64,000 nt of DNA from Ignisphaera sp. (GTDB taxonomy: Archaea; Thermoproteota; Thermoprotei_A; Sulfolobales; Ignisphaeraceae). The first letter of the stretch is position 1, and every line of letters begins with the position of its first letter. A program made the position numbers and the translations under genes. The stretch lies in assembly GCA_038889075.1 (NCBI GenBank), contig JAWAHS010000002.1, positions 76,930-140,929 of the forward strand, in the 5' to 3' direction. The notes under the pieces are model-generated. The model was given only the letters and a program-made list of their open reading frames with translations. It had not been told where the DNA came from and made no database searches. Below, in pieces: positions 18,201-29,815 of this stretch.

Positions 18201-19274
18201 TTGGGTGTGATTATGAATGGTGCATCTAGAGTTGTTGGTGAAAAAACGCTACAGGATATAATGGAAATACCGAGATCTATAGATGCTATTAGAGAGAACT
18301 TCGATAGCCTAAAGGAGGTTGCCGCATCTATTGTTAATAGAAATTGTAGATGTCTATACCTTACTGGATGCGGATCTTCATATTACTCAGCAATGTTAAT
18401 GTCGATTCCTCTTCAGATTCACCGACCAAAATTAAATGTACGTGTAATACCATCATCAGAAATTTTGATGTACCTAATCAACACACTTTCTGAAGAATGT
18501 TGCATAGTAGCTATTTCTAGATCGGGGGAGACAGCCGAGACTCTTGAGGTTATGAAGAGGGGTAGAGAGAGAGGGACGTATAACGTAATCATAACCATTA
18601 GTGAAAAAAGTGAAAGCATTAAATACGCAGATGAGTACCTCTATATTAATGTTGGGGTTGAGAGAGGCATAGTAATGACAAAAAGCTTCTATTCAATGTC
18701 ACTAGCAGGATTGTTAATTACACTTAGCATGGTCGCAGGGAAAAGTAGTGATATGGATTTAGAGTTAGATAGGCTTAAAGAGCATGCCATTAATACAATT
18801 GAAAAAAGAAGCATAATATTTAGGCTTGCAGAGAATTATATCAACATGGGCATCAATAGATTTATAGTCTTAGGTTCAGGTCCATCATATCCAATAGCAT
18901 TAGAGGCCTCCTTAAAACTAAAAGAGTCTTCATATGTAGCAGCAGAGGCTATGCATGCTCTCGAGTTCAGACACGGCCCCATAGCAACACTTGATAAAAA
19001 CGTGCTTGTAGTTATTATAAACCAGGATGGAAAGAGCTACAGCTATGTCTATAAACTCTATGAAGAACTTAGAAATATAGGTGCTAATGTACTTAGACTA
19101 AGTAATAAAGATTTAGATGAGGATACATTGCCACTAAGTAAAACTAGCTATGAAGAACTCGATGCTCTTTCAGCTATATTGCTATTACAGCTTATTACAT
19201 ATGGCTATACATTAGCATCAGGTCTGGATATTGACAGTCCTAGAAGGTTGGTTAGGGTAGTTACACATTATTAG
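18201..19274 (+). CDS. tandem SIS-domain protein, hexosamine-6-phosphate deaminase (GlmD/AgaS-like)
   Basis: TGCGSS, ISRSGETAET, VMTKSF, LKLKE, EFRHGP, DSPRRLVRVV; no glutaminase domain. Confidence 0.88.
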   Translation: MGVIMNGASRVVGEKTLQDIMEIPRSIDAIRENFDSLKEVAASIVNRNCRCLYLTGCGSSYYSAMLMSIPLQIHRPKLNVRVIPSSEILMYLINTLSEECCIVAISRSGETAETLEVMKRGRERGTYNVIITISEKSESIKYADEYLYINVGVERGIVMTKSFYSMSLAGLLITLSMVAGKSSDMDLELDRLKEHAINTIEKRSIIFRLAENYINMGINRFIVLGSGPSYPIALEASLKLKESSYVAAEAMHALEFRHGPIATLDKNVLVVIINQDGKSYSYVYKLYEELRNIGANVLRLSNKDLDEDTLPLSKTSYEELDALSAILLLQLITYGYTLASGLDIDSPRRLVRVVTHY

Positions 19275-20281
19275 ACTACCAAAATGCTAGTTTCGGCTCT
19301 TTCAACGTTTTTCAATACTTTTTCAACAATATCCTGGGTAATGTCCATACCTAGCCTTTGTAAAGCTATTATAATGGGACCTAATATAGCCCTGTATCCT
19401 ACTATAGGCTCCTTTAATGTGGCTTTCCTTAGCAACTTTCTAACTCTGTTTTCAAAAACTCTGTTAACTATCTTTGATTTAAATACGCTACCGATACCCC
19501 CTACAATAATATCATCATCTACCATACCAAGTTTCTGTGCAACACTGTATACAGATAGTGCAAGTTCCAAACCAGCTTTTTCCATTATTTCTCTAGCTAC
19601 TTCATCACCTTTTTCGGCCTCCTCATCTACGAGAACAGCTATGGCTGCTATCTTACCTATATCAAAAGGTTTCATCCTATAAATGTATGTTACGATATCC
19701 AGCAGGTCATCAACATTGTAGAATTCTCTTATCCTATTTATAAGTGAAGTATAGCGTCCTCTACCATCATATGCCCTCGAAACCGCATTTAGCGCCTGGA
19801 GAGCTATCCAAGAAGCACTACCTTCGTCACCTATGATCCAACCCCATCCACTTGACCTTGCCCTACGACCAAACCTATTCATACCAAATGCAATAGCGCC
19901 GGTGCCAGCTATAACAGCAATTCCAGGTTTGCCCCATGTAACAGCATAGAAAGCTGTTATAGCATCGTGCTCAATTATAATTTTTTCAAAAGGATAGCCG
20001 AGTTCTCTAACATAGTTCCAGGCAATATCTAGATCTCTTTTGGTATCTAAACCAGCCCAGCTAAATACAATCAAATCGACGTCTTCAATGGATGTGGTGG
20101 TCCGTCTAAGACACGTATCTATAGCATCTCGTATATTTGTTTTGACGATATTCTCCTCTAGAGTTATATCAGCGGGTCCACTAGAAACGCTACACAAAAT
20201 ATCTAGGTTTTCATTGAACATCATTGCAATACTTTTCGTTTTTCCTATATCAAGGGCTATAAATTTCATAACGACCACCAT
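19271..20281 (-). CDS. BadF/BadG/BcrA/BcrD-type N-acetylhexosamine/hexosamine kinase
   Basis: DIGKTK, IAGTG, GWGWIIGDEGS motifs. Confidence 0.88.
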   Translation of the reverse strand: MVVVMKFIALDIGKTKSIAMMFNENLDILCSVSSGPADITLEENIVKTNIRDAIDTCLRRTTTSIEDVDLIVFSWAGLDTKRDLDIAWNYVRELGYPFEKIIIEHDAITAFYAVTWGKPGIAVIAGTGAIAFGMNRFGRRARSSGWGWIIGDEGSASWIALQALNAVSRAYDGRGRYTSLINRIREFYNVDDLLDIVTYIYRMKPFDIGKIAAIAVLVDEEAEKGDEVAREIMEKAGLELALSVYSVAQKLGMVDDDIIVGGIGSVFKSKIVNRVFENRVRKLLRKATLKEPIVGYRAILGPIIIALQRLGMDITQDIVEKVLKNVERAETSILVV

Positions 20282-20336
20282 GCTGTACTCAGTGGTTCGG
20301 AATTATATAAATGACACTTAAAAATTGCCTAACGTA

Positions 20337-20630
20337 ACTGTTTTGGTTTTCGTATAGGTTTAAGGGTTGATGTGGTTGTTTTACTGTGGTTTGAGCTTGT
20401 CCACGATGTGGTGTGTGGTGGAGACCTGGGTGGGTAGGGGCATACAATGCCGGGATGTGGGGGTTTCCCACAGCTGTGAACCGGAACCATATGAGGGGGA
20501 GCTGTGGGTAGGGGTTTCCCCAAAGGGGTGGAGGCCGATGATATGGGCTCCGATGAAGGGTGCCCCGAGGTCTGTGAAGCCAAGAGTTGACAACAAACAA
20601 CATCAACCAATACAAAACCCAAACCCCAGT
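20337..20630 (+). mobile_element. non-autonomous structured element, probable internally deleted IS200/IS605/IS607-type miniature keeping an omega-RNA-like right end
   Basis: GC-rich island; G/T-rich left arm imperfectly complementary to A/C-rich right arm; nested helices; + frame RDVGVSHS...ELWVGVSPKGWRPMIWAPMKG recalls crenarchaeal TnpB tails (from memory). Confidence 0.55.
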
Positions 20631-20669
20631 ATGCTTAGTATAGTCTACTATAGGAGTAGCATATTTAAT

Positions 20670-21533
20670 TTATTTCCCAATCTTTTTAATTACTACATCT
20701 ACTGTCGTGTGATATTTGTGTGGTGCAACACCTCTAATGACATGTCCGCCAATGATCTCAGCAGAAGCTCCGTATTTCTCAATGAACTTCTTTACTGTTT
20801 CAGCTGACTTGATAAGAGCCTCTCGCTTATTCCTTGCTTCTATAAATAGATGGGGATGTACTATGCTCTCTTCTTTGACGATCATCATAGCAGCCTCAAT
20901 AGCTTTTTCAAATAAATCTGGAAATGGCATTAGTATTCTATCAAATTTTCTTTGAAGCGATGGTACTATCAATAATGCATCCCCATGTATAATTTCGTTT
21001 AGAAATGCCACCTTATTTAGCTCTGCATTTTCTCTAGCATATTTAACTGCATGTTCATTGATGTCTATAGATAGTACATAGGAGGGCTTTCCATATTTAG
21101 AGGCTATTATACTATATGGTCCAAAGCCGGAGAACATATTTAATATTTTTTCGCTTTTCCTAATCTGCTTAGCTATTCTCATGTGATCATAACCCAGAAC
21201 GGGTGAGATATAGACTTTAGTTACATCAAGTTTGAATATACATCCATGTTCTTTATAGACGGTTTCGCTTCTTTTTTCACCTGCTAAATGTACGTAGCTT
21301 CTAGTCCTTTCAATTCCATATACGGGTGTTATAGCAAGCCACACACTCTTAACATAGGATAGGGATTTTAAAAGTTCCTCGCCAATGACTTTAAAAATAT
21401 CTTCAGATAGATTAAAGGGTTTTCTAATAATAGCAATATCGCCTACAATTTCAATACGTCTCCAAATCAGCTTAGCATAATCAGAGCCTAGAACTTTCTC
21501 AGCAATTCTCCTAAGTAAAGGTTCTTCGGACAA
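20670..21533 (-). CDS. Trm5/Tyw2 (Met-10+) family tRNA position-37 modification enzyme
   Basis: EIVGDIAI, YKEHGCIFKLDVTKVYISP, MFSGFGPY, DRILMPFP. Confidence 0.88.
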   Translation of the reverse strand: MSEEPLLRRIAEKVLGSDYAKLIWRRIEIVGDIAIIRKPFNLSEDIFKVIGEELLKSLSYVKSVWLAITPVYGIERTRSYVHLAGEKRSETVYKEHGCIFKLDVTKVYISPVLGYDHMRIAKQIRKSEKILNMFSGFGPYSIIASKYGKPSYVLSIDINEHAVKYARENAELNKVAFLNEIIHGDALLIVPSLQRKFDRILMPFPDLFEKAIEAAMMIVKEESIVHPHLFIEARNKREALIKSAETVKKFIEKYGASAEIIGGHVIRGVAPHKYHTTVDVVIKKIGK

Positions 21534-24198: not shown

Positions 24199-24275
24199 TG
24201 GCGCCGCGGCCGGGATTTGAACCCGGGTCACGGGCTCGACAGGCCCGCATAATAGCCGGGCTATACTACCGCGGC
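24199..24275 (-). tRNA. tRNA-Asp(GUC), intronless, CCA encoded
   Basis: GCCGCGG acceptor stem, CGGGC-CT GTC GA-GCCCG anticodon arm, GGTTCAAATCC T loop; TTTTAAG TATA about 30 nt upstream. Confidence 0.97.
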
Positions 24276-29737: not shown

Positions 29738-29815
29738 TGGTGCCGCGGCCGGGATTTGAACCCGGGTCACGGGCTCGAAAGGCCCGCATACTTGACCGGG
29801 CTATACTACCGCGGC
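29738..29815 (-). tRNA. tRNA-Glu(UUC), intronless, CCA encoded
   Basis: GCCGCGG acceptor stem, CGGGC-CT TTC GA-GCCCG anticodon arm, GGTTCAAATCC T loop. Confidence 0.97.

Follow-up and report, generated by a model that had tools for sequence, protein, structure and literature searches.

What kind of element is a gene-less, G+C-rich island of some 300 bp in the genome of a hyperthermophilic archaeon, and does an RNA read from it have a role? The question is raised by a 64,000-nucleotide stretch of DNA from Ignisphaera sp. of the Sulfolobales (assembly GCA_038889075.1, contig JAWAHS010000002.1, positions 76,930 to 140,929), which is termed the window below and whose positions are counted from its first letter. 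An initial annotation, made from the letters without database searches, had read an island between two minus-strand genes of this window as an orphan structured RNA or miniature transposon resembling a TnpB omega-RNA locus, with its own promoter and no nuclease. The observation is borne out and the interpretation proves largely right: we consider it likely that the island is a gene-less, miniature and non-autonomous derivative of an insertion sequence (IS) of the IS607 family, akin to MITEs (miniature elements of the inverted-repeat transposable type) or palindrome-associated transposable elements (PATEs), and that it has kept a promoter and the scaffold of an omega-RNA.

A miniature element in multiple copies

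The element occupies 301 bp of the plus strand (20327-20627), its ends being set by alignments of six copies from the same genome and of 17 copies from seven genomes. Its tips lie at 20327 (GCCT...) and 20627 (...AAACCCAAACCCC), which replace the limits of 20337 and 20630 first given, and its G+C content is 57-61% over positions 20380-20600, compared with a genome background of about 35%. Six full-length copies, 78-94% identical, are found in the 1.95-Mb genome on contigs C2 (the window copy), C17, C4 (two copies), C12 and C1; alongside these stand a copy on C6 with an internal deletion, a fragment of 67 bp at C2:12278 and, on contig C5, one full-length parent IS. A sensitive BLAST search of relatives returned the 17 full copies that were aligned end to end, one of them in another family, and searches of plasmid and phage collections returned no match to the element.

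Beyond GCC... on the left and ...CCCC on the right, the flanks of the 17 copies are unrelated, and target-site duplications are absent. The conserved junction triplet at 20327-20329 (plus strand) reads GCC in 15 of the 17 copies and GTC in the other two, nothing is conserved further left, and CC stands at both junctions in most copies. By likeness to the TGGG/GG junction of the clostridial CboIStron, the left GCC is a candidate target or target-adjacent motif (TAM) with a CC core dinucleotide; taken together with the CC of the right end, it would fit the core dinucleotide of a serine recombinase and a short TAM.

The left end (LE; 20327-20376, plus strand), which matches the parent up to about element position 47-50, carries repeated GGTTT..AT and GGTTGATG motifs that are direct in LE and recur as inverted copies in the right end (RE; 20584-20627, plus strand). 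RE is common to the parents and contains a palindrome (GTTGA, 20586-20590; TCAAC, 20603-20607) followed by an A/C-rich tail; its hairpin is stronger in the G005-type subfamily, where it reads GGGCTTGATA/TATCAAGCCC. The repeated motifs make up the G/T-rich and A/C-rich arms that the initial annotation had described as imperfectly complementary. That complementarity is present (inverted repeats I2, 13 nt, 92%; I3, 11 nt, 91%; I5, 10 nt, 90%), but an RNA stem formed by the arms is not supported across the copies (72.8% and 87.3% paired), and the arms are best read, by analogy, as inverted recombinase-binding motifs of both transposon ends.

Classification as a classical MITE was also considered. 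The element is short, multi-copy and devoid of open reading frames (ORFs), as such elements are, but its tips (GCCT.../...CCCC) are not inverted repeats, the inverted motifs being subterminal, and no target site is duplicated; its likeness to MITEs is accordingly one of function, and it does not belong with the classical ones.

Descent from an IS607-family parent

The parent IS on C5 (minus strand, 41579-38314) matches the element in segments. Element positions 1-91 match 41579-41484, and positions 67-113 and 128-301 match 38616-38314, within or just after the tnpB frame; the right 174 bp (positions 128-301) correspond to the last 176 bp of C5 tnpB plus RE, on the same strand as tnpB and with 85% identity over 176 nt, and the matching LE is found there as well. 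What has been kept from the parent is thus about 48 bp of LE with its TATA box, 47 bp of zinc-ribbon coding sequence and the last 175 bp or so of tnpB with RE, while about 14 nt of the element stand where the parent has 79 bp. The zinc-ribbon segment lies at 20393-20439 (plus strand) and is 81% identical to C5 tnpB. Judged by sequence, the retained 3' part of tnpB together with RE is the site at which TnpB elements encode the omega-RNA scaffold. Both element ends are common to the C5 IS and to two related loci, L057 and L059, and matches to LE and RE occur also at L061; the proposal of an internally deleted element sharing its ends with a full-length tnpB element is thereby supported.

The genes of these parents identify the family. 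C5 tnpB is a 445-aa frame with a Cas12f1-like TNB domain (55.2 bits; cut-off 26.3), and residues 228-374 of its product align to ISDra2 TnpB (8h1j, 8bf8), including the E and last D motifs of RuvC. C5 tnpA, upstream of tnpB, encodes Resolvase and MerR/HTH_17 domains and is truncated at profile position 79 of 145; it is interrupted by an insertion of about 1.47 kb that holds a 376-aa ORF. Intact relatives of about 1.95 kb are present at L057 (470-2419) and L059. With NF033518, the profile named 'IS607 family transposase', the tnpA product of L057 (204 aa) reaches 230.6 bits (cut-off 110) over profile positions 1-186 of 187, and the L057 tnpB (426 aa) overlaps the end of tnpA; the parent family is assigned to IS607 because of this match. 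The initial annotation was right as to a tnpB element, and the serine-recombinase family to which that element belongs is a specification that it had not made. Relatives of the TnpB protein occur in metagenome-assembled genomes labelled Desulfurococcus, Desulfurococcaceae, Sulfolobales and Thermoproteota, and in one labelled Aenigmatarchaeota.

Three further observations concern related mobile DNA. The 376-aa ORF in the C5 insertion (C5:39956-41086, equivalent to L011:2657-3787, plus strand) lies on the opposite strand, has no Pfam or NCBIfam match and may represent another, undescribed mobile element. At L059, the IS copy is 84% identical and lies in a bin labelled Candidatus Aenigmatarchaeota (DPANN), which could reflect either horizontal transfer or a binning error. 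Finally, two other tnpB genes of the genome, at C1:339355-341110 (L013) and C9:17019-18377 (L012), are accompanied by LE-like matches of about 50-65 nt (73-85% identity), with a resolvase fragment at the C1 locus; these matches suggest further, more distant IS607-type elements.

Retention of a putative promoter and loss of coding

The initial annotation had attributed to the island a promoter of its own on the basis of a TATA-like box. The window copy indeed carries a box at 20358-20364 (plus strand) that descends from the promoter of the parental tnpA, whose family consensus is TTTATAA, although in this copy it is degenerate (TTTAAG, 20359-20364). The consensus is retained in 15 of the 17 miniature copies and at L057, L059, L060 and L061. 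In the parents, about 36 nt lie between the box and the start codon of tnpA, and a ribosome-binding motif, GGAGGTG, comes after the box. The box is a putative promoter, and all helices described below sit downstream of it.

The plus-strand frame of the island resembles TnpB tails (GELWVGV..GWRPM.WAPMKGAPR), a likeness that the initial annotation had pointed out. Of the 17 miniature copies, 12 have lost this frame through a frameshift or a stop.

A conserved and covarying RNA fold

Known housekeeping RNAs do not account for the island. RNase P and signal recognition particle RNAs, which had been set aside for lack of their signatures, are found as the genome's own genes on C6 and C11, and an Rfam scan left the island unmatched at gathering score or E<=1, with three chance-level matches at E<=10. 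Across the 17 copies, a structure of eight helices is paired in 95.1% of cells, and the cells changed on both sides number 37 as against 16.5 +/- 3.0 in column shuffles (0/500); slid-register controls pair in 31-54%. For the core, the corresponding values are 94.7% paired and 34 both-sided cells against 13.2 +/- 2.5 in 30 sequences (18 miniature, 12 parents), and 95.3% paired and 88 both-sided cells against 33.7 +/- 5.8 (0/500) in 53 matches to a covariance model; the model that the initial annotation had called for was thus built, and its helices covary. G-U pairs make up 72 of 637 paired cells, and pairing falls from 95.1% to 87.1% when the opposite strand is considered, an asymmetry by which the tnpB strand is favoured.

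All helices are given on the plus strand. H1 (20399-20402 with 20432-20435) and H2 (20410-20412 with 20424-20427) form within the zinc-ribbon segment, and three of the four H1 pairs are changed on both sides. All parents have CCCAC/GTGGG as their H1, a version that codes for CPRC and RVGR; G005-type copies have CCTC/GAGG, and copies of genus g34 have CCGCCC/GGGCGG. The both-sided changes are specific to miniature lineages and therefore came about in sequences that make no protein. Stem P-b (CCCACAGC, 20467-20474, with GCTGTGGG, 20501-20508) is 97.8-97.9% paired in the sets of 17, 30 and 53 sequences, its variation being mostly G-U and one-sided. Next to it stands a GGGG-UUU-CCCC hairpin (20511-20521; 97% paired), whose GGGG 5' half could instead pair with the 3'-terminal ACCCC as a nexus-type pseudoknot, the GGGGU/ACCCC core of which is invariant. 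The three-helix arm (20527-20581) comprises H5 (20527-20529/20579-20581), H3 (20533-20536/20569-20572), the middle pair of which alternates between A-U and C-G, and H4 (20545-20551/20559-20565), in which four of seven pairs are changed on both sides (variants GGGCACC/GGTGCCC, GGCCTCC/GGAGGTC, GAACCCC/GGGGTTC and GGATCCC/GGGATCC) around a conserved GAUGAAG loop (20552-20558). H4, H1 and H3 stand out as the strongest of the helices. The internal core is the most conserved part of the element, and, on comparison of the copies, a conserved covarying fold has been retained after the frame was lost.

This fold departs in part from the one first drawn. The motifs from which that drawing was assembled are all in place (AGACCT at 20422, AGGTCT at 20568, GGGGCA at 20437, TGCCCC at 20561, TGTGGG at 20456), as is the helix of CCCACAGCT (20467) with AGCTGTGGG (20500), labelled I6 (9 nt, 100% complementary), which is 97.8% paired across copies. 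The repeat GTGGGTAGGGG likewise occurs twice (20430-20440 and 20504-20514), with an expectation of 0.02 and no instance of two occurrences in 100 shuffles. The two long-range helices fare less well in the 17 copies: AGACCT/AGGTCT is paired in 65.6% of cells and its 3' half pairs locally with GGCC (20533), and GGGGCA/TGCCCC is 76.3% paired and its 3' half pairs locally with GGGCTCC (20545). A local GTGGGG/CCCCAC hairpin (89.8% paired, two pairs changed on both sides) is a possible alternative to P-b.

Kink-turn-like modules

At four places in the scaffold, a helix strand is followed by N-R-U-G-A and the facing strand carries G-A, a pattern resembling kink-turns (K-turns). One such module lies at the inner end of P-b (bulge 20475-20477, with G20478 and A20479 opposite G20499 and A20500), one on either side of H3 (20537-20541 opposite 20566-20568; 20573-20578 opposite 20530-20532) and one in the H4 loop (20552-20558), all on the plus strand. 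In the 53 sequences, U, G and A of the P-b module are each kept in 52 and the opposite G and A each in 51; over all four modules, conservation extends to 50-53 sequences for each of U, G and A and to 44-53 for the facing A and G. The earlier suggestion of K-turn candidates, which drew on box-C-like motifs, is strengthened by these near-invariant modules, a K-turn fold and L7Ae binding being predicted from the sequence pattern.

In the parents, the UGAs of the modules fall on Met codons in the tail of TnpB (those of PM.W, PMKG and MKP), and the region is therefore dual-coded; in the miniature copies that have no frame, the same UGAs are invariant. The TnpB tail (the last 60 codons or so, as represented at L057, L059, L061-L063 and C5) may accordingly be conserved for the RNA as much as for the protein, to judge by these alignments.

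Distribution and possible transcription

Matches to the core model, R1, occur in 52 of the 151 genomes sampled from the order, and thereby in 22 of 59 genera and 7 of 13 families; in one family, with genomes of 2.5-3.0 Mb, they are weak only (E 1e-4 to 1e-9). There are nine matches in the window's genome, at least 23 in five g34 genomes and 22 in genome G152, whereas TNB-domain genes number six in G152, five in G077 and seven in G068, and in any one genome no more than one or two of them are found immediately upstream of a core match. The proportions are reversed in G154 (16 TNB genes vs 10 core matches) and G005 (21 vs 8), in both of which other TnpB families are numerous. Loci in other families repeat the same arrangement, with tnpA-tnpB parents alongside gene-less copies of about 300-350 bp that have the same plan and a TATA box.

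In the contigs of one metatranscriptome, X18, the core reaches a depth of 317-838, compared with 7.3 for the neighbouring gene, these contigs stemming from other copies than that of the window and showing neither strand, start nor end. Some X18 contigs continue past RE into flanks of no mutual similarity, a weak hint of transcription across the end of the element.

Proposed mechanism

Two internal deletions removed tnpA and most of tnpB from the parent, and deletion placed the tnpA promoter ahead of the scaffold. Transcription from the LE promoter would start near 20385 and cross the scaffold and position 20627, so that the RNA would bear at its 3' end a guide of about 16-20 nt copied from the flank. 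Following the TnpB paradigm, the putative guide of the window copy, if an omega-RNA is made, is the flank transcribed past RE at 20628-20647 (plus strand), which begins at 20628 and not, as first proposed, after 20630; the flanks after RE differ between all copies. TnpB supplied from elsewhere, for example from the 445-aa C5 gene, would load this RNA. After excision by the serine recombinase TnpA, TnpB would cut the rejoined empty site (GCC plus flank), and recombination would restore the copy. Movement itself would need TnpA in trans, recognising the inverted GGTT-type motifs at both ends. A search of the genome with the first 16 nt of the flanks of eight copies gave one match, of 15/16 nt, between the window copy (20628-20643) and C1:197875; this match lies in unrelated sequence without GCC before it and is probably due to chance.

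More speculatively, the scaffold may be an archaeal omega-RNA built of three K-turns and a kink-loop that recruits L7Ae, the promoter-bearing miniatures may form a dispersed, self-expressed library of guide RNAs that exploits a few TnpB genes, and each copy may direct TnpB to restore it after excision. We regard this extended proposal as possible and hold it tentatively. If it is true, a gene-less element has inherited RNA-guided homing, with selection acting at the RNA level alone.

Counter-evidence and alternative explanations

Several observations weigh against a derivative that keeps a working promoter and scaffold. The TATA box reads TT--TAAG in the window copy, with a 2-nt deletion, and TTTGTAG in its nearest relative on C17, and these two copies may therefore be poorly expressed. 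An intact IS607 TnpA is absent from the assembly, which is 99.6% complete and contains two partial resolvase matches only, so that the copies may be immobile in this genome, and the C5 TnpB falls below the NCBIfam TnpB cut-offs (72 bits vs 100). With respect to the fold, single-sequence folding is no better than that of shuffles (z = -0.11 for the plus and -1.41 for the minus strand); folding energy is uninformative, and the case for structure therefore rests on comparing copies. Here, the 53-sequence alignment (A4) was fitted to the covariance model, the covariation controls have weaknesses in that the structure was derived from the same related sequences as were tested, and sequence exchange between parents and miniatures is possible, so that some compensatory pairs may reflect selection in parents only. 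The sixth pair of the candidate pseudoknot is compensatory in 4 of 52 sequences and broken in 18 of 52, leaving it without covariation support. As noted for X18, the RNA contigs come from other copies and reveal neither strand nor transcript boundaries. Finally, the comparison with an empty site that the initial annotation had proposed yielded none for the window and C17 copies in 16 same-genus genomes; no contig or joint spanning an empty site was present in metagenome runs X13, X14 and X15 (DNA) or X18 (RNA), four of 24 listed runs, where these were covered, and wherever a metagenome contig extends across either junction, it contains the element.

Some of these observations would suit an inert relic, that is, a purely parasitic miniature transposon whose fold was inherited from the omega-RNA region of its parent, is slowly decaying and yields an RNA without a role. 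The lack of an intact TnpA, the degenerate box of the window copy, the missing empty site and the RNA contigs without transcript ends are all in keeping with this, as is the 78-94% likeness of the copies, which are therefore not very old. However, a serine recombinase should need the ends only, and yet the core is the most conserved part of the element; 95% pairing persists despite a frame broken in 12 of 17 copies, the both-sided changes in H1 are limited to miniature lineages, the promoter is retained in 15 of 17 copies and the same architecture persists in seven families. An inert relic is on this account unlikely.

Another explanation holds that the conserved hairpins act as DNA, either as cruciforms or as sites for the recombinase or a host factor during transposition. 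Both ends do carry inverted GGTT-type motifs, RE contains a palindrome, and IS607 ends are reported to have short inverted motifs that are important for TnpA (10.1101/2023.11.20.567912). The same source describes IS607 TnpA as acting on double-stranded DNA, however, and the helices that covary lie well inside the element, at a distance from its ends, with G-U pairs in 72 of 637 cells and only 87% pairing on the opposite strand; a role as DNA appears very improbable. We give as little credence to a domesticated host non-coding RNA of transposon descent, for instance an L7Ae-bound regulatory or guide RNA working with a nuclease-dead TnpB-like protein, for although the four near-invariant K-turn-like modules, a G+C richness like that of structural RNAs in thermophiles and the existence of TnpB-derived transcription factors (as outlined in PMC10705468) are compatible with it, the copies stand at unrelated, non-syntenic sites and differ in number among related genomes (0 to at least 23), the transposon ends are intact and no dedicated partner gene lies beside the copies.

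The reading of the island as an IS607 derivative with retained promoter and omega-RNA scaffold is therefore preferred.

Surroundings of the window copy

The element is flanked, as first described, by two minus-strand genes, which are called as a BadF/BcrA-type ATPase gene on the left (19271-20281) and a Trm5/Tyw2-type methyltransferase gene on the right (20670-21533). The right flank (20628-20665) contains a palindrome, CTACTATAG/CTATAGGAG, at 20645-20656 and an inverted pair, TATGCT..AGCATA, just past the methyltransferase stop; this is possibly the terminator of that gene. In the same-genus genomes checked, that is, G012 and G009 in the case of the window copy and G012 in that of C17, the genes that flank these copies are not adjacent: they are placed on other contigs or, as for C17 in G012, inverted and at a distance of 14 kb. 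The two copies may sit where rearrangements have broken the chromosome; alternatively, divergence between the species may simply be too great. At gathering score, the sole Rfam matches of the whole window are two tRNA genes on the minus strand (24202-24275 and 29741-29815).

Implications

The model of TnpB homing predicts a gain for non-autonomous elements that keep a guide RNA, and the family described here is a natural test of it. Its unit of about 300 bp consists of the ends for recombination, a promoter captured from the parent and a scaffold plainly maintained by selection after the protein frame decayed; its carriers are many hot-spring archaea, in some of whose genomes scaffolds far outnumber TnpB genes. 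For experimental work, the family offers a thermostable IS607-type TnpB whose scaffold is defined, GCC as a candidate for a short TAM, and natural compensatory variants of the scaffold; it also suggests that K-turns and L7Ae may be used by omega-RNAs of archaea. When genomes are annotated, such G+C-rich islands should not be called genes or unknown housekeeping RNAs.

Comparison with known systems

A precedent is that of PATEs in the IS200/IS605 family, which according to Meers et al. (PMC10055086) often encode omega-RNAs that are acted on in trans by the TnpB of other elements. Like the window element, PATE-like elements are described as gene-less, short and multi-copy, keep their ends and a guide-RNA region, and would need TnpA and TnpB in trans. 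They differ in that their movement takes place as single-stranded DNA and depends on a Y1 transposase, by which hairpins at the ends are recognised, whereas the window element comes from a family of serine recombinases acting on double-stranded DNA. Among archaeal IS200/IS605 systems, the TnpB of Sulfolobus islandicus has a 5'-TTTAA TAM that was read off aligned left ends (10.1101/2023.03.06.531077), and two further studies of archaeal TnpB (PMC11043419, PMC12558985) concern IS200/IS605 by their titles.

For the IS607 family, the biology of TnpA, TnpB and omega-RNA is presented by Zedaveinyte et al. for the clostridial CboIStron (10.1101/2023.11.20.567912). What is shared with such elements is that the full-length relatives of the window element have a serine recombinase TnpA of the MerR helix-turn-helix type (NF033518) followed by an overlapping tnpB, that target-site duplication is absent, that short inverted motifs are present in both ends, and that the tnpB 3' end is structured up to RE, with several consecutive stem-loops before the flank. 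The same report describes a nexus pseudoknot, in which the nexus stem-loop pairs with the scaffold 3' end, as typical of omega-RNAs. Unlike CboIStron, the window element lacks both genes, resides in a hyperthermophilic archaeon and has a GCC/..CC junction instead of TGGG/GG; additionally, its scaffold appears longer (about 230 nt from H1 to RE) and bears K-turn-like modules.

These modules share with archaeal K-turns and box C/D-type L7Ae-binding motifs a helix, a 3-nt bulge ending in U, a G-A step and an opposite G-A, and one pair in the element reads AUGAU.U ... CUGA (CUGA in 30 of 53 sequences), like archaeal C/D boxes. They are unlike C/D RNAs in that the C-like and D-like boxes are separated by strands which base-pair with one another to form H4 and do not serve as methylation guides, and none of the C/D sRNA families in Rfam matches. 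Word searches of a limited set of papers found no description of K-turns or L7Ae in omega-RNAs, nor of archaeal IS607 miniature elements with an omega-RNA. By description, the nearest named archaeal element is SMN1 of Sulfolobus (320 bp), which depends on its presumed mobiliser ISC1733 (PMC3718332); it too is a non-autonomous element of about 300 bp in a thermoacidophilic member of the Thermoproteota and relies on a two-gene IS. The window element accordingly belongs to a known kind, that of non-autonomous elements carrying an orphan omega-RNA, and what sets it apart within this kind is that it is archaeal, IS607-derived, promoter-bearing and equipped with a K-turn-rich scaffold.

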